Assembly: GCA_963594125.1 (NCBI GenBank)
Contig: CAVBCV010000001.1
Span: 746-64,745 of the forward strand
DNA length: 64,000 nt
Direction: 5' to 3'
Source: Lachnospiraceae bacterium
Lineage (GTDB): Bacteria > Pseudomonadota > Alphaproteobacteria > RF32 > CAG-239
Part shown: in pieces, positions 98 to 54,593 of the stretch
Layout: each line of letters begins with the position of its first letter
How positions within the stretch are numbered: the first letter of the stretch is position 1
Position numbers and translations under genes: made by a program
The notes under the pieces: model-generated
What the model saw: only the letters and a program-made list of their open reading frames with translations
The model's database searches: none
Told to the model about the DNA's origin: nothing

Positions 98-190
98 CCC
101 CTTTCTGTCACACTCCGATCCGAAGGGAGTGTCCAGGTAAGGTAAATTAGTTAATTTGTGGTACCTGGATTATCGGGTCAAGCCCGATAA
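98..190 (+). repeat. Copy 1 of a structured element of about 93 nt, a candidate small RNA or palindromic repeat element. A diverged second copy lies at 53861-53954 on the minus strand.
   Basis: Aligns to the reverse complement of 53861-53954: cccctttctgtcacactccga, ggagtgtccaggt, aaattag, aatttgt and tcgggtcaagcccga are shared. Two hairpins are conserved with compensatory substitutions: cactcc/ggagtg against cactccga/tcggagtg, and ttatcggg-tcaag-cccgataa against tattcggg-tcaag-cccgaata. Confidence 0.55.
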
Positions 191-265
191 TGACGGCATA
201 CAGGCGAACTTTAGTTTCACGTCAGATGATTACTACACAGAAGTGAACGCATAATGCGATTAAAT

Positions 266-16135: not shown

Positions 16136-17905
16136 TTATTTATTTTGTATTTGCCAGAGGTGTTGAAATTCGCCGGAAGAGGCAAGTAAATCTTTAATAG
16201 CGCCTTGCTCTGCTATTTTACCTTTATCCAAAACAATAATGCGATCCATTTCTTTCAAGGTGGAAAGTCGGTGAGCAATAGCAATGACTGTTTTATTTTT
16301 CATTAAGTTTTTCATACCTTTTTGAATATATTTTTCAGCTTGACTATCTAAAGCTGAGGTTGCCTCGTCTAAAATTAATATCGGCGAATTTTTTAAAATC
16401 GCGCGCGCAATAGCCACACGCTGCCGCTGCCCGCCGGAAAGTTTAACGCCCTTTTCTCCGACTTTGGTTTGGTATCCTTTAGGTAATTGTTTAATAAAAT
16501 CATCGGCATAGGATTTTTGCGCCGCCTTTTCAATATCAGATTGTTTGGCTTGCAATCGTCCATACGCTATATTTTGGCTCACACTGCGATGAAACAGTGA
16601 TGTATCTTGCGGAATAACGGCAATTGCCTCATGCAGGCTGTTTTGTTTGATTTTGGCTATATCTTGTCCGTCTATTAAAATTTGACCGGACTGAATATCA
16701 TACGCGCGTTGCAACAGATTAATGAGCGTGCTTTTACCACTGCCGGAAACACCGACAATCCCGACCTTTTCACCGGCATTTATGGTAAATGACAATTTGT
16801 TAAACACTTTCTTTTTTCCATAGCTGAACTTAACATTTTTAAATTCTATTTTGCCACCCTTTATTTTAAGTTTTTTGGCGTTTTTAACATCAACAACTTC
16901 ATGCTTTAGCACAAATGGCGACATAGCCGCTTGCAGAGCGCCATAGTTGGTATTTAATTCACAGATATTAACTAAAATGCCTGAAAAAGTATTCATAATT
17001 GCATCCATCAGCATTAACACTAATGTTACATCGCCAACGCTGATTTGATTTTGATACCACATCTTGATTAGCAGCAATATACTTCCAGACTCAAATAAAC
17101 ATAGCATAGCTCGTTGAATACGCAGCCCGTTATGAAACGTATTTGTAGCGGACAAACGCGCGTTTGTGCATTTATCAAATATTCTTTTTACAAAGGAAAT
17201 TTCATAATCTTCACTACCGCCTGCTTTTATGTTCAAAGAATTACTTATACTATCGGCCACCACGCCGTTAAAATCATCAAGCATATCATTAGCGTTTTTA
17301 TGTAAAGCGCGCAGTTTAAAGCTGATTTTATAAGAGGCAACAGCGGATATTGAGCCAAAAACAAAAACTAAAAGCAAAAACCACAGGCTGACCCGTCCGA
17401 TAAAATAAAAATTAAGCAAAACAAAGAAAAAGGCGCTGTAAAACCGCGAAATATTTCTATGCAATTCCGTAGTTTTGTTTGAGCAGTTAAGTGTTTTTTG
17501 TGAAAGTTGTCCGGATTTTTGCGATGAAAAATAATTTTCAGAGTGTTTGGCTAAATAATCTACCGCAAACAACTTTATTTTAGCATCCATAAAATTCCGC
17601 ACATTGTTTTCTTCAATCAGCTCGCGCACCATTCTGAAAACAGACTGCCCGACATACGCAAAAAATATCGCTATTAAAAACCACCCTGTTTTACGCCAAG
17701 AAAGCTCCTGCGGCGTAATTAAAGCAAAATACTCTATCATCTTTGAGAAAAATACCGGAACATAAACTTTAGAAATCTGCAAAGCAAACGCTAATACCAC
17801 ACCGGCAACCGCCCATTTGCGGGCACCGTATAACGCCTCCCACATAAACAACAGCGGATTTTTTGATATTTTGCGCATATTCGGGATTTTTTCAAAAGAC
17901 TTCAT
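16136..17905 (-). CDS. ABC exporter with fused permease and ATPase, MsbA/ABCB-type half transporter, 589 aa.
   Basis: Six-helix N-terminal transmembrane domain, then a nucleotide-binding domain with Walker A GVSGSGKST, the signature LSGGQRQRVAIARA and Walker B ILILDEATSALD. Confidence 0.85.
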   Translation of the reverse strand: MKSFEKIPNMRKISKNPLLFMWEALYGARKWAVAGVVLAFALQISKVYVPVFFSKMIEYFALITPQELSWRKTGWFLIAIFFAYVGQSVFRMVRELIEENNVRNFMDAKIKLFAVDYLAKHSENYFSSQKSGQLSQKTLNCSNKTTELHRNISRFYSAFFFVLLNFYFIGRVSLWFLLLVFVFGSISAVASYKISFKLRALHKNANDMLDDFNGVVADSISNSLNIKAGGSEDYEISFVKRIFDKCTNARLSATNTFHNGLRIQRAMLCLFESGSILLLIKMWYQNQISVGDVTLVLMLMDAIMNTFSGILVNICELNTNYGALQAAMSPFVLKHEVVDVKNAKKLKIKGGKIEFKNVKFSYGKKKVFNKLSFTINAGEKVGIVGVSGSGKSTLINLLQRAYDIQSGQILIDGQDIAKIKQNSLHEAIAVIPQDTSLFHRSVSQNIAYGRLQAKQSDIEKAAQKSYADDFIKQLPKGYQTKVGEKGVKLSGGQRQRVAIARAILKNSPILILDEATSALDSQAEKYIQKGMKNLMKNKTVIAIAHRLSTLKEMDRIIVLDKGKIAEQGAIKDLLASSGEFQHLWQIQNK

Positions 17906-17908
17906 AAC

Positions 17909-19672
17909 TTACCCCTCTTTTTCCAGCTGTTGCATTTTCCATAACTTAGCAAATTTACCGTTTTTCATGGCGGCAAGTTCATCAAAAGTACCGGTTTCCA
18001 TGATTTTTCCTTGTTCAATATAAATAATCCGGTCCATTTTCTTTAAAGTTGAAAGCCGGTGAGCAATAGCCATTACGGTTTGTACGCCTAACAGATTATT
18101 AATTGCCGCGGCAACCTCGCTTTCAGATTGGCTGTCAAGCGAGGAAGTCGCCTCGTCTAAAATTAAGATGGGACTATTACGCAAAACCGCGCGAGCAATG
18201 GCAATACGTTGTCTTTCACCCCCTGAAAGTTTGCAACCGCGTTCCCCGACCATTGAGTTATAGCCTTCCGGCAATTTTTTAATAAACTCATCAGCGCAAG
18301 CAGTCTGCGCGGCTTGTTTTATTTTTCGGTCAGTCGCTTTAATGCCATAAGCAATATTTTCTTTTATACTGCGCTGAAACAAAACCGTCTCTTGCGGAAT
18401 AATGGCTAAATTTCGGTGCAAACTGCTTTGCGTTACGTTTTTAATATCCTGCCCGTCTATTAAAATTTGACCGGACTGAATATCATACGCGCGTTGCAAC
18501 AAGTTAATGAGCGTGCTTTTACCGCTGCCGGAAACCCCGACAATCCCAACCTTTTCACCGCTCTTGATTTTCAGATTAAAGCCGTCAAAAATTCTGTTTT
18601 GTTCCGGATAGGCAAAACAAATGTTTTTAAATTCTATTTCAGCTTTTTTAACTTTAAGCGGTTTGGCGTTCGGGTTATCGGTAATTTCATGCGGGGTTGT
18701 AAACGGCTCTAATCCGGCTTGAACATAAGACAAACTGTTGGCGAGCCTGCGAAAATCTATACACAGTTCCATCAGCCACATAAAACCGCCGCTCAATGTT
18801 AATAAAACAAACACAATATCGCCGACCGTAATTAATGATTCACTCCATAAATAAATGGCATAAATCAACATAAACAGAGAGCACAAATATATAAAACAAC
18901 ACATGCCGGTAAAAGATGAAAACCATGCCAACATGGTCTTGGCTTTAATTTTTATGTATTGTTGCAGTAATGTTGATAAACGCTTTTTTTCATGCTCTAA
19001 ACGATTAAATTGCTTAACCAAGCGGATATTGGCAATAACATCAACCAGCCAACCGGTATATAAAGCCTCTGATTTGCTCTGCATTTTATTTAAGTGGTTA
19101 CTGGTTTGATTGGCGTAATAATTAACTAAAGTTACTACGGCAACGCATATTACAAACAATAATCCTAAGCGAGGATTGATGATTGTTAATAAAATTATTT
19201 TTACGCCGATATCGCAAAAAATTCCCCAAAACTGCGCAATAATTACGGAAAATATCGGCTGAAGAGAATTAATCTGATTGGTTTTAGTCAGTAAAGTTCC
19301 GGTTTGTTTGTTGACAATATAATTAACCGAATGCCCGAAAATATATGAAAGAGCGCGACCGTAAATACGCCTTTGCAGCGGAAAATAAAAATGTTTTTGC
19401 CGATATATATTATTTTGTTTAGGCAAAAAGATGTTAATAACATTGCAAATAAAAATGGCGGCGAAAATCCATAAAAGATTATGCAAATTTTCAGGCGTTG
19501 CCCCTTGTTTAACCCCCTCAACCATTTTGGCAAACAACCAATCTAATAAGTTGAAGACGGAAATTTCCGCAAGCACAAACAGCAAACAAATTAAAAATGT
19601 CCATTTATAAGGTATCAGACATTCATTTATGATATATTTTATTGCCGTTTTCGGAAATGGCTGCGCCTGCAT
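17909..19672 (-). CDS. ABC exporter with fused permease and ATPase, paralogous to the adjacent gene, 587 aa. The two probably form a heterodimeric exporter.
   Basis: Same architecture, with Walker A GVSGSGKST, signature LSGGERQRIAIARA and Walker B ILILDEATSSLD. It is adjacent and co-directional with the paralog. Confidence 0.85.
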   Translation of the reverse strand: MQAQPFPKTAIKYIINECLIPYKWTFLICLLFVLAEISVFNLLDWLFAKMVEGVKQGATPENLHNLLWIFAAIFICNVINIFLPKQNNIYRQKHFYFPLQRRIYGRALSYIFGHSVNYIVNKQTGTLLTKTNQINSLQPIFSVIIAQFWGIFCDIGVKIILLTIINPRLGLLFVICVAVVTLVNYYANQTSNHLNKMQSKSEALYTGWLVDVIANIRLVKQFNRLEHEKKRLSTLLQQYIKIKAKTMLAWFSSFTGMCCFIYLCSLFMLIYAIYLWSESLITVGDIVFVLLTLSGGFMWLMELCIDFRRLANSLSYVQAGLEPFTTPHEITDNPNAKPLKVKKAEIEFKNICFAYPEQNRIFDGFNLKIKSGEKVGIVGVSGSGKSTLINLLQRAYDIQSGQILIDGQDIKNVTQSSLHRNLAIIPQETVLFQRSIKENIAYGIKATDRKIKQAAQTACADEFIKKLPEGYNSMVGERGCKLSGGERQRIAIARAVLRNSPILILDEATSSLDSQSESEVAAAINNLLGVQTVMAIAHRLSTLKKMDRIIYIEQGKIMETGTFDELAAMKNGKFAKLWKMQQLEKEG

Positions 19673-42692: not shown

Positions 42693-42830
42693 AATTACTC
42701 CTTTGCTCCCGATATTTGAATTTAAGGCGCTTTAATTTAAATATCAAGGTTGGATTATATAACTGAGTAAAAAATTTAAACACTTGTAAATAGCATAAAA
42801 TTAGTTATGATAATTTATAAAGGAGAAAGC

Positions 42831-43265
42831 ATGAAAAAATATTTAATTATATTATGTATGGCGTTATCGGGCTGTTGTTCTTTGACTAACCAATGTTTTA
42901 TTGACAAACGGTTTAATCTTAAACTTGAAGCACTTTCAAAAACTGTTCGTGATTCTTATTTAACTCCCACCAAAATTGTTACCAATTATGGCAAAGATTA
43001 TATTGCTTTTTATTATGAATGTAAAATTGTAGAAAACAGAATAGGTTTTGTTAAATTTATTTGCAATGGAATGCAATCTTATACGCCTTTTCCTTATATA
43101 TCTAATAAAAAAGCTATGGTTTCATATAAAATTGCGCCGGAAAAAGATAAAACATTTGAACAATATGTAGTAGAAGAACTTACATATGAGCAATATCCTC
43201 ATAATAAAGAATGGCACCGTTCAGGCGGTGGATATTACTTATTGCAGGAAGAAAATAATAATTAA
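42831..43265 (+). CDS. Lipoprotein of about 144 aa, a tandem paralog of the next gene.
   Basis: Lipobox MKKYLIILCMALSGC and RBS aaggagaaagc. Its N-terminal 40 aa and its C-terminal EQYVVEELTYEQYPH..EWH.SGGGYYLLQEEN are almost identical to the neighbour. Confidence 0.6.
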   Translation: MKKYLIILCMALSGCCSLTNQCFIDKRFNLKLEALSKTVRDSYLTPTKIVTNYGKDYIAFYYECKIVENRIGFVKFICNGMQSYTPFPYISNKKAMVSYKIAPEKDKTFEQYVVEELTYEQYPHNKEWHRSGGGYYLLQEENNN

Positions 43266-43274
43266 GGAGAAAGC

Positions 43275-43700
43275 ATGAAAAAATATTTAATTATATTGTG
43301 TTTGGCGCTATCGGGCTGTTGTTCTTTGACTAACCAATGTTTTGTTGACAGGCGCTTTAATCTTAAACTTGAAGCACTTTCAAAAACTGTTACCGACACA
43401 TATTTAACTCCTACCAAAATAATGTTTAAATCAGGGCAAGAATATTCATCGTTTTATTTTGGCTGTAAATTAAAAGAGAATCGTATGAATTTTGTTAAGT
43501 TTATATGTGACGGCACCCATTGGGCGGATAATGATATTAATAATGAACAAATTGTTATAACCTATGAAATTAATTCTGAAAAAGATAAAATATTTGAACA
43601 ATATGTGGTAGAGGAACTTACCTATGAACAATATCCTCACGACAAAGAATGGCACAGCTCTGGAGGCGGATATTACCTATTGCAAGAAGAAAATATATAA
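43275..43700 (+). CDS. Lipoprotein of 141 aa, a tandem paralog of the previous gene.
   Basis: Same lipobox and RBS. It is identical to the neighbour at both ends and diverges in the middle. Confidence 0.6.
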   Translation: MKKYLIILCLALSGCCSLTNQCFVDRRFNLKLEALSKTVTDTYLTPTKIMFKSGQEYSSFYFGCKLKENRMNFVKFICDGTHWADNDINNEQIVITYEINSEKDKIFEQYVVEELTYEQYPHDKEWHSSGGGYYLLQEENI

Positions 43701-53270: not shown

Positions 53271-53660
53271 TCTCTTTGCTCTCTTAATAAAAAACATAAC
53301 ATAATAATAACAACCATAATGATATTTGCAACACTTATTTGTGATGTTACATACTGTTTGTAAACAATATATAGGTATTATAAATACTTATCAAAACAGC
53401 CTTGACAATAGAATTTACTGCTTTTAGATTAAATATTGCTCCTCACCAATAGGAACGAAACGTTTGATCGCCTATTTGGTATCTGTATGCGGTAGGCTGA
53501 CCGGTACAGGATTGGGGAGCACTTTTTAATCTATTTTATACATTGACACAATCATATAACCATCATCCCTGCCATAGCCATTACCTAGTAATGGATTTTG
53601 CTTTAATATATTATACGATTGTTTTATTTTGCGCACAATTTGTGATTTTTTTTGATAAAC

Positions 53661-53710
53661 CACCCCGTCGGCGTTCCGCCGCCACCCCTCCACGGGATGG
53701 GAATTTTAAA
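53661..53710 (+). repeat. Copy of the dispersed GC-hairpin motif (caccccgtcgg...ccacccctccacgggatgggaatttt).
   Basis: Matches the reverse complement of 10-55 and the first part of the 100-bp tandem unit. Confidence 0.5.
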
Positions 53711-53760
53711 GTGCAGATTTAAATACAACTTATGCACAGCATGGACTCGTAAATATTGCA

Positions 53761-53817
53761 AAAAAAAAAACGCGAGCTAAAATCCTCTCAAAATTAACTT
53801 TTTGAGAGGATTTTAGC
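53761..53817 (-). terminator. Strong intrinsic terminator on the minus strand, an 18-bp perfect stem (gctaaaatcctctcaaaa / ttttgagaggattttagc) followed by T10.
   Basis: The + strand shows A10 then the inverted repeat, so on the minus strand this is a hairpin followed by ten T residues. It lies directly downstream of structured element copy 2 on the minus strand. Confidence 0.75.
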
Positions 53818-53860
53818 TCATGAATACATATTTTAGCCGCTTTTTACACCACACTCTGTT

Positions 53861-53954
53861 ATATTCGGGCTTGACCCGAATATCTAGATGGAACAAATTT
53901 GCTAATTTGGTTGACCTGGACACTCCGATCAAGTCGGAGTGTGACAGAAAGGGG
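53861..53954 (-). repeat. Copy 2 of the structured element of about 93 nt on the minus strand, a candidate small RNA that would terminate at 53761-53817.
   Basis: See copy 1 at 98-190. The two copies are about 70% identical and carry compensatory changes in two helices. Confidence 0.55.
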
Positions 53955-53987
53955 AAGGACGCATCGCTCAAGCCCAAAGGTGACAGC

Positions 53988-54593
53988 TTGTGTGCAGGGC
54001 GCAGCATGGTAGAGATGCTTGGTGTGCTTGCGATTATCGGGGTACTTTCTGTTGGCGCTATCAGCGGTTACTCCAAAGCGATGATGAAATATCGGCTCAA
54101 CAAGCAAGCGGAACAAATTAATCAGATAGTTAATGCAGTTTCACAATATCATGACCAGATTAAATCGGACACACCTATTTCTTTGGTACCGATATTTAAG
54201 AAAATAAATTTAATTCCGGTGGAAATGATAAAAGATGACTCATACAATATTTATGATATTTTTGGAAATAAAATTAGAATAACATCATATAACTATCATG
54301 GGCTTTATGTGGCTAATCTTAGTTACAATATTGATTTAACTAATTTAAACAACATGGAAGTTTGCCGCAACATTATTAATACCATTAAAGAAAACAGCCA
54401 AAGTATTTACTACCTTGAAAGCATTGCTGATTGGGATACCGAAAACGCAAAACAAAAAATATTATATGGCGACGCCTACTGTAATAAATACAGAGGGTGT
54501 CTTAACAGCGTTTCTGTTAATGATATGGATAATATTTGCCGCGGATATGAAAAAAATGAAGATGCTAATATGATTGTTTGGTGGCACAGTTAA
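53988..54593 (+). CDS. Prepilin-type N-terminal domain protein, a type IV pilin- or pseudopilin-like protein of about 201 aa.
   Basis: The segment G|RSMVEMLGVLAIIGVLSVGAISG resembles the class III signal G|FTLIELMIVVAIIGIL, with Glu at +5. The candidate start is the TTG at 53988 with an aaggtg RBS; the alternative is the ATG at 54006. The ORF-track extension back to 53820 overlaps the antisense element and is probably not translated. Confidence 0.45.
   Translation: MCAGRSMVEMLGVLAIIGVLSVGAISGYSKAMMKYRLNKQAEQINQIVNAVSQYHDQIKSDTPISLVPIFKKINLIPVEMIKDDSYNIYDIFGNKIRITSYNYHGLYVANLSYNIDLTNLNNMEVCRNIINTIKENSQSIYYLESIADWDTENAKQKILYGDAYCNKYRGCLNSVSVNDMDNICRGYEKNEDANMIVWWHS

Follow-up and report, generated by a model that had tools for sequence, protein, structure and literature searches.

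The stretch of DNA analysed here (the window) comprises 64,000 nucleotides of contig CAVBCV010000001.1 from a gut alphaproteobacterium, and it carries two copies of a palindromic element, one extragenic and one within a gene for a type IV prepilin-like protein. Judging by its sequence, each hairpin of the element is a repetitive extragenic palindromic (REP) unit of the CGTC-tagged superfamily, and the two units form an inverted heterodimer. The preliminary description of this DNA had reported an element of about 93 nt in two diverged copies, one on each strand, about 70% identical and both intergenic. A repeat finder recovered them as the longest inverted pair in the window, with gapless 99-nt arms (96-194 and 53858-53956) that are 79% complementary; the divergence and the opposite strands are thus borne out, at a higher identity than had been given. 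The precise repeat unit is a shorter, 88-nt core at 107-194 on the minus strand (copy 1) and 53858-53945 on the plus strand (copy 2). It reads GTCA, a 9-bp stem closing on CTTGA, and TCCAGGT, followed after a 24-nt spacer by ACCTGGA, a stem closing on TCAAG, and TGAC. The hairpins are as first described: CACTCC/GGAGTG in copy 1 versus CACTCCGA/TCGGAGTG in copy 2, and ATTATCGGG-TCAAG-CCCGATAAT in copy 1 versus ATATTCGGG-TCAAG-CCCGAATAT in copy 2, with two pairs flipped. Copy 1 is indeed extragenic; copy 2, however, lies within the open reading frame (ORF) at 53820-54593.

Within the window the conserved blocks are confined to these two sites, and they never occur in shuffled sequence. A covariance model built from 38 relatives and run over the 64 kb with filters off returned two sites only, at 78-99 bits (87.6 bits for copy 1 and 99 bits for copy 2), with the next best site at 17 bits. 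Copy 1 aligns gaplessly with 37 relatives over the 88 columns. The flank CCTTTCTG is specific to the copies in the window, so that a search pattern including it matched no genome or metagenome contig; patterns restricted to the unit did match.

The ORF that holds copy 2 (53820-54593, plus strand) encodes a putative type IV prepilin-like protein of 257 aa whose mature part starts RSMVEMLGVLAIIGVLSVGAI. Its leader-coding region, from the ATG to the G(-1) codon, spans 53820-53999 (60 codons) and is open through the REP units. Copy 2 occupies codons 13-42 as an in-frame heterodimer. The left unit (53858-53889, plus strand) has the stem ATATTCGGG/CCCGAATAT and the sense loop CTTGA and encodes YSGLTRIS, and the right unit (53914-53945, minus strand), which has no mismatches to the unit pattern, has the stem ACACTCCGA/TCGGAGTGT and the sense loop TCAAG and encodes DTPIKSECD. 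A third, degenerate hairpin unit, GGACGCATCGCTCAAGCCCAAAGGTGAC (53957-53984, plus strand), encodes DASLKPKGD and was recognised by alignment with intact third units at two other loci (L032 and L049). Past residue 60 the product continues as G/RSMVEMLGVLAIIGVLSVGAISGYSK..., with the cleavage motif G60/RSMVEML (a slash marks the predicted cut). The segment G60/RSMVE65 followed by MLGVLAIIGVLSVGAI is invariant in 44 homologs, and the combination of G(-1), E(+5) and a hydrophobic helix is a type IV prepilin-like signature. Hidden Markov model (HMM) scores fell below the cut-offs for PF07963 (N_methyl; 12.6-16.8 bits, cut-off 21.2) and TIGR02532 (10.6-15.1 bits, cut-off 16.3), all of the matches being to prepilin-type N-termini. 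The AlphaFold2 (AF2) model is disordered over residues 1-62 (pLDDT below 50), followed by a 50-residue helix (64-113) and a globular domain with pLDDT above 90. A protein database search returned 6922 homologs (E <= 0.001), two of which carry the JGI names PulG/PilE. Four cysteines are conserved in the family, two of them invariant and two present in at least 90% of the 44 homologs.

The N-termini of these homologs vary. Many have an extension that is the translated element in one or the other orientation, such as ...SYSGLTRISRWNKFANLFDLDTPIKSECD... and ...LSDLIGESRSNKVANLSHLDYRVKPDND..., and others have only the short leader MNTQSG/RSMVEML. One short-leader protein is the ortholog of the window's gene (L001): it occupies the same locus beside rlmN, ialB and a poly(A) polymerase-family gene, with the same upstream hairpin, Shine-Dalgarno (SD) sequence and ATG AAT ACA start. 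Where the window has an insert of 168 nt, this ortholog has 6 nt.

The gene is preceded by a conserved 5' cassette. A promoter-like TTGCAA-N16-TAAAAT (53756-53783, plus strand) has a spacer that holds an A11 tract (53760-53770), and a perfect 20-bp hairpin that ends at the ATG scores as an intrinsic terminator on the minus strand (53773-53820), where the stem is followed by T11. This hairpin encloses the SD sequence and the -10-like hexamer, and it is kept in every cassette with compensatory differences. Promoter-like hexamers, A-tract, hairpin at the ATG and leader with units are conserved together, and one shared 5' cassette argues that the copy number came from gene-family expansion and exchange of 5' ends rather than from the scattering of a free element. 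In about 50 cassettes (L001-L061) the tract is A10 in 41 and A9 in 6, with single cases of A8, A11 (the window) and A12, and the spacers are 13-17 nt. The A-tract-spaced promoter, common to all paralogues of the pilin-like family, looks like a slipped-strand, phase-variable one. The vlp genes of Mycoplasma hyorhinis are a surface-protein multigene family with a phase-variable 5' cassette and a poly(A) promoter spacer. Such families resemble this one in that paralogues share a near-identical promoter and leader ahead of a diverging mature part and a homopolymer sets the -35/-10 spacing; they differ in that the pilin-like leader carries REP hairpins, and switching in the gut clade is only suggested by sequence.

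Copy 1 is an 88-nt dimer (107-194, minus strand) of one intact and one degenerate unit with a 24-nt spacer. The intact unit (163-195, minus strand) has a CGTC tag at 195-192, the 9-bp stem ATTATCGGG/CCCGATAAT, the loop CTTGA and a CCA tail. The degenerate unit (106-138, plus strand) has a TGTC tag, the 7-bp stem ACACTCC/GGAGTGT, the altered loop GATCCGAAG and a CCA tail. Copy 1 is flanked on either side by degenerate units and belongs to a repeat mosaic that also includes a G+C-rich hairpin (8-55) and 3.5 tandem 100-nt units (265-540). There is no start codon, promoter-like region or mature pilin part downstream of it. Its alignment with leader modules nevertheless extends past the core, and beyond the window's left edge, reading the minus strand past the G+C-rich hairpin, the DNA starts like the cassette promoter region. 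Copy 1 may be either an ordinary extragenic dimer with one decayed unit or the relic of a lost cassette. A decayed leader fragment was dropped as the sole reading because the same linkers and degenerate units occur in extragenic REP clusters elsewhere (L062).

The G+C-rich hairpin, ACCACCCCGCC..GGCACCCCTCC..GGGGAATTTT, is a separate repeat family, G-rich on the strand opposite the gene. It occurs upstream of pilin-like cassettes and as the tandem array of 3.5 x 100 nt, and was found in the window at 8-55, 265-540 and 53657-53710 and at two other loci (L001 2850-2895 and L035 2775-2815). A similar G+C-rich hairpin lies beside the extragenic REP cluster of another gut bacterium (L062, about 1115-1175).

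The anatomy of the units places them among published repeats. Each has a (C/T)GTC tag, followed by a 9-bp stem that begins with an A-T pair and is capped by the 5-nt loop CTTGA, and then a CCA tail that stays unpaired. In the window the tag is CGTC in the intact unit of copy 1 (192-195, minus strand), TGTC in the right unit of copy 2 and TGTT in its left unit. Across 38 distinct 88-nt cores (alignment A3) the first stem pair is A-T in every copy, the loop CTTGA (TCAAG on the other strand) is invariant in 38/38 left and 37/38 right units, and CCA(GGT) follows the stem in all units but the left unit of copy 2 (CTA) and two others. The second pair of the left unit is T-A in 29 and C-G in 9. The two units are inverted, tail to tail, about a 24-nt spacer between TCCAGGT and ACCTGGA, and the dimer is a heterodimer because its units have different stems.

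CGTC-tagged REPs are described by Di Nocera, De Gregorio and Rocco (2013, BMC Genomics 14:522; PMC3733652) as having a tag CGTC, often TGTC or CCTC, stems of 8-9 bp starting with A-T, 4-5-nt loops of few sequence types and a CCA tail. They occur mostly as opposite-orientation pairs with spacers of 20-100 bp, heterodimers predominating in CGTC-2 and CGTC-3, and their hosts are mainly alpha-Proteobacteria, in which they are mostly extragenic, dispersed and often just downstream of ORFs. Intragenic copies encode 20-82 residues, some of them at N-termini. According to the supplement of that paper, Rhodopseudomonas palustris CGTC-3 dimers encode VIAGLDPAIH...DARVKPAHD. Such peptides back-translate to GTCAT-stem-CTTGA...TCAAG-stem-ATGAC, the window's unit in other frames, and the other frames of the window element read VIFGLDPNI and DIRVKPEYN. 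By this back-translation, as distinct from the consensus figure of the paper, the nearest family appears to be CGTC-3, which has a 9-bp stem and a 5-nt loop and whose units occur in R. palustris and A. tumefaciens; CGTC-4 has the same stem and loop lengths.

The gut-clade units resemble CGTC-3 REPs, as far as these are described in PMC3733652, in tag, 9-bp A-T-first stem, 5-nt loop and CCA tail, in forming inverted heterodimers with spacers of about 20-25 nt, in their alphaproteobacterial hosts, and in that CGTC-3 REPs also have occasional in-frame intragenic copies. One stem type differs: its second pair is C-G, so that the published definition of a CGTC REP in the same source is fitted at this position by one stem type only. 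The preliminary description had matched the element to no family and had named a known repeat family accounting for it as grounds for giving up the idea of a new structured RNA; the CGTC REPs are such a family. Its comparison with Rickettsia palindromic elements (RPEs) came close, and is apt because the same source equates Rickettsia conorii RPE-4 with CGTC-4 and RPE-6 with CGTC-1, so that both share the superfamily; the mobility that it attached to the comparison is one of the alternatives weighed below.

The 38 cores confirm in a larger alignment the preliminary claim that pairing rather than sequence is conserved. The two local hairpins are paired in 98.5% and 99.1% of cases, with 5 pairs per hairpin changed on both sides, and the covariation score is 0.247 versus 0.106 in shuffles (0/500 reach the observed value) and 0.02-0.07 with slid partners. 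The helix TCCAGGT/ACCTGGA is 98% paired, yet invariant. A single long hairpin pairing the left half with the right scored below shuffles on every measure and was rejected, and therefore the two units vary independently; stem types are found in all combinations across paralogues, and the spacer in both orientations. A strand-asymmetry count intended to tell selection on RNA from selection on DNA gave G-U over A-C by 7 to 0, but it is biased by the detection threshold and contradicted by one locus (L013), so that maintenance may act at either level. Diversity at fourfold-degenerate sites is 0.064 in the core versus 0.571 in the mature N-terminus beside it, a stretch whose protein sequence is conserved, and the encoded peptide shifts radically with stem type (TPIKSEC, TPVKPEC, YRVKPDN, IRVKPEY or HRVKPDG; SDLIGVS or SGLTRIS). 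Frozen synonymous sites together with a changing peptide indicate that it is the nucleic acid, rather than the peptide, that is under constraint or homogenisation. The compensatory changes are the upkeep of REP stem complementarity that is general to CGTC REPs and give no reason to assume a dedicated RNA gene; since REP palindromes covary as well, covarying hairpins are not by themselves a sign of one.

The 24-nt spacer (alignment columns 33-56; window 53890-53913) occurs among paralogues in two mutually reverse-complementary orientations, independent of the flanking stem types. This suggests that the hairpin loop enclosed by TCCAGGT/ACCTGGA has repeatedly undergone small inversions. A switch by site-specific inversion was rejected: 24 nt is too short for recombinase looping, the reading frame stays open with the spacer in either orientation, and small hairpin-loop inversions are simpler.

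Relatives of the unit are widespread in metagenomes. A degenerate one-unit pattern matched 148 units in 119 metagenome loci from human gut, marine, freshwater and sediment samples, at a GC content of 0.31-0.74. Their tag is TGTC in 88/148 and CGTC in 53/148, and the stem pair left free by the pattern is Watson-Crick in 144/148, with all four pair types represented. The dimers with 19-25 nt spacers number 55 and are heterodimers without exception (55/55), and the covariance model recovers whole dimers in these loci. Only 19/148 units lie near a GRSMVEML pilin start. By context, 47/148 lie within 150 nt after the 3' end of an ORF and 22 before a start, while 48 could not be placed; some units form inverted dimers or alternating arrays. 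Many other bacteria represented in metagenomes thus have these units outside genes. Long alternating REP arrays with a period of about 81 nt and open frames (...SCSDLIGASRCAMDPRVKPEDD...) occur in GC-rich contigs (L088 1060-1750; L068 3650-3800 and 10300-10370), where they are a likely source of spurious ORF calls.

Among the genomes related to the window the distribution is very different from the mostly extragenic, dispersed one described for CGTC REPs. The hairpin pattern matched 54 loci, only in four metagenome-assembled genomes of uncultured gut Alphaproteobacteria, three of which have 14-22 matches each and the fourth 2; many matches lie at contig ends. Adding four loci from a protein look-up (L005-L007) and the window, we evaluated 62 matches, of which 58 lie at most 200 nt upstream of a GRSMVEML start. 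The exceptions are two matches at sequence edges and two in truncated cassettes. A structure-based scan of 449 kb found 131 hairpins (3.2 in shuffles), 121 of them in leaders, 8 in decayed or edge cassettes, including copy 1 of the window, and 2 chance-like. In this gut clade the units observed are confined to one gene family, apart from decayed cassettes and one extragenic dimer. Three related genomes of gut Alphaproteobacteria each have the leader arrangement in at least 14-22 paralogous genes. The truncated cassettes (L035 2928-3185; L055 4440-4530, minus strand) are decayed family members: promoter-like region, ATG and REP-bearing leader are intact, but the sequence beyond them is unrelated and runs into an early stop.

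The position of the units within the leaders is strictly in frame. Distances from match to start are 13, 16, 25, 28, 31, 52, 64, 73, 112 and 130 nt, all 1 modulo 3, and every long leader with complete upstream sequence is open from the ATG to G(-1) across all its hairpin units, which number one to four. MKSxFSRFLH is the start in most of them; a few have a shorter MIKK or MFIKK. Only one of the three frames per strand is stop-free through the element, and extragenic copy 1 has a stop codon in both peptide frames. The palindrome is stop-free in the leader frame for any stem type at either position and for both spacer orientations. Of 63 genes, 34 lack an in-frame start codon in the stretch from the last hairpin to G(-1). 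The open frames, the modulo-3 distances, the absent downstream starts and the stops in copy 1 argue that the units are translated within the leader.

We therefore favour, with a probability of roughly 0.72, the reading that the elements are CGTC REP heterodimers, that copy 2 lies in frame in a translated and then cleaved prepilin-like leader, that the number of copies reflects expansion of the gene family, and that copy 1 is extragenic. Translation would run from the conserved ATG at 53820 through the hairpins, encoding ...YSGLTRISRWNKFANLVDLDTPIKSECD..., and the extra residues, about 55, would be discarded with the leader at the cut G60/R61. We propose that the insertion is tolerated because the repeat-encoded residues are removed with the leader, which would offer shelter to a palindrome that by chance has no stop in its frame. 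Copy number would have risen by growth of the gene family together with its 5' cassette and by exchange of 5' ends among paralogues. In cis, a stable messenger RNA (mRNA) structure at codons 13-42 may modulate translation or stability of the pilin-like message; RNA folding predicts -34 kcal/mol for the copy 2 core (z = -5.15) and gives z = -6.8 for the 251-nt 5' region. Such an effect would most likely be post-transcriptional. The element would then be a new, CGTC-3-like member of the CGTC REP dimers, its unusual point being the strict tie to the leaders of a large pilin-like family.

Several points weigh against this interpretation. Usual prepilin leaders have about 5-30 residues. The REP-bearing leaders, at 30-83 residues (60 in the window), are far above this, and unit-less paralogues have 5-8; the existence of short-leader paralogues also means that the REP insert is dispensable. 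The prepilin assignment draws on the G(-1), E(+5) motif and sub-threshold HMM matches, and the product is called pilin-like by its motif; Foldseek and sequence searches of the PDB gave no significant pilin match, and the modelled globular domain was unmatched there. We infer translation through the units and cleavage at G60/R61 from sequence features, and a possible downstream start exists in 29/63 genes, often a TTG three codons before G(-1). REPs being for the most part dispersed and extragenic, confinement to a single gene family is unusual for them. The low synonymous diversity could result from gene conversion of the 5' cassette instead of selection. Finally, the choice of CGTC-3 over CGTC-4 is indirect, resting on the encoded peptides and not on the consensus figure.

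A possible but doubtful extension is that the REP dimers have been domesticated: selected for and translated, they would belong to the expression cassette shared by a possibly phase-variable pilin-like multigene family, its prepilins would have exceptionally long leaders (30-83 residues), and the mRNA or DNA hairpins would tune expression or promote exchange of 5' ends among paralogues.

It is unlikely that the dimer instead lies untranslated in a long, structured 5' untranslated region (UTR), with a downstream start of translation such as the TTG located three codons ahead of G(-1), and the hairpins acting purely in post-transcriptional control. The caveat is explicit in PMC3733652, where Di Nocera et al. 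suggest that many REPs at predicted ORF N-termini are untranslated elements of post-transcriptional control. The 29/63 genes with an in-frame ATG, GTG or TTG past the last hairpin fit such an arrangement, as do the GGAG located 9 nt before the TTG at 53988 in the window and the short-leader paralogues, which manage with 5-8 leader residues. An untranslated element, however, would account poorly for 34/63 genes that lack such a start codon, for a frame that is always open with distances from unit to G(-1) of 1 modulo 3 across at least 10 architectures, or for the single stop-free frame per strand when both peptide frames of the extragenic copy hold stops. The insert-free ortholog, moreover, has the same ATG and SD sequence upstream.

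Somewhat less likely still is an actively mobile palindrome, RPE-like, similar to MITEs (miniature transposable elements with inverted repeats) or mobilised by a tyrosine transposase, that inserts site-specifically into prepilin leaders and owes its uniformity to recent transposition. The orthologous locus is indeed polymorphic for presence and absence between the window and L001, unit number and type vary from leader to leader, unit diversity is very low beside a diverged gene body, and many matches lie at contig ends, as expected of repeats. The window/L001 junctions (ACA/TAT...GCA/GGG), however, show no target-site duplication, and the whole 5' cassette is conserved along with the units, which fits duplication or gene conversion. 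The 449 kb scanned hold no copy in unrelated genes, there are no matches to the element in viral contigs, and no dedicated transposase is known for CGTC REPs (PMC3733652).

The preliminary description had favoured a small regulatory RNA or riboregulator, which could be, for example, an antisense transcript over the start of the pilin-like mRNA that ends at the minus-strand terminator at 53820-53773. The strong predicted structure (z = -5.15), the covariation and, on the minus strand, a canonical intrinsic terminator that follows 40 nt downstream are all compatible with this, but we consider it very improbable. A scan of the window against Rfam returned only a tRNA-Thr, permissive E-values adding generic hairpin matches far below threshold, and no promoter-like site lies upstream of the element on the minus strand. 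Both hairpins derive from one DNA unit, each inverted relative to the other, a symmetry at the level of DNA; the element is fixed in frame within a coding region, and in many other bacteria these units occur as ordinary extragenic REPs. That the leader peptide itself is functional, for instance as a targeting propeptide with incidental palindromy, is the least credible reading despite the always open frame and the conserved start MKSxFSRFLH, given that the peptide is not conserved where the stems covary, that fourfold-degenerate sites are nearly invariant, that the AF2 model is disordered in the leader, and that some paralogues and orthologs have short leaders. Also rejected were integron attC sites and shufflons: the genes at whose 5' end the element lies each have a promoter-like region and do not form clusters of cassettes.

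Comparison with other palindromic repeats sharpens what is particular to the gut clade. The CGTC-3 REPs of PMC3733652 lie mostly downstream of unrelated ORFs, whereas the gut-clade units lie in the leaders of one family, in decayed cassettes and in one extragenic dimer. RPE-1, RPE-4 and RPE-6 are likewise palindromes that lie in frame in genes and are translated along with them. RPEs, however, are inserted in frame into many unrelated Rickettsia genes (44 insertions in R. conorii) and are kept in the mature protein; the hosts here are uncultured gut Alphaproteobacteria, and the units lie in one gene family, at one position, in a segment predicted to be cleaved. GTAG REPs, BIMEs and REPINs with their RAYT transposases are also inverted palindrome doublets that can fold apart or as one hairpin and show compensatory stem changes; the window units differ in being tagged CGTC/TGTC and not GTAG, and their extended single hairpin is disfavoured in the alignment. 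MITEs such as Correia and ERIC elements are small non-coding repeats of inverted symmetry that can sit in transcripts and alter expression; the window units are much shorter and modular, with neither terminal inverted repeats of insertion sequence type nor a target-site duplication relative to the empty ortholog. No description of REPs in prepilin leaders was found in the literature searched.

Elsewhere in the window, a stand-alone HD-domain protein related to RelA/SpoT hydrolases (546-1076, 176 aa) adjoins a phage Gp30.3-domain protein (PF08010) within 546-1728 on the minus strand. Two sets of diverged duplications, tandem or close together, at 42817-43695 and 16215-18560, with segments of 247 and 162 nt at 79-81% identity and blocks of 62-144 nt at 76-87% lying 1785-1788 nt apart, are probably paralogous genes.

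With the element assigned to a repeat family already described, one candidate for a new structured RNA drops out. The REP dimers fixed in frame at one leader position in at least 14-22 paralogues in each of three genomes should be noteworthy to those who study REPs and pili, all the more as the hosts are uncultured and otherwise barely characterised gut Alphaproteobacteria. If the hairpins are indeed translated and then cut off, these genes would encode prepilins with unusually long leaders and would provide a clean natural example of a cleavable leader that shelters selfish or regulatory DNA.

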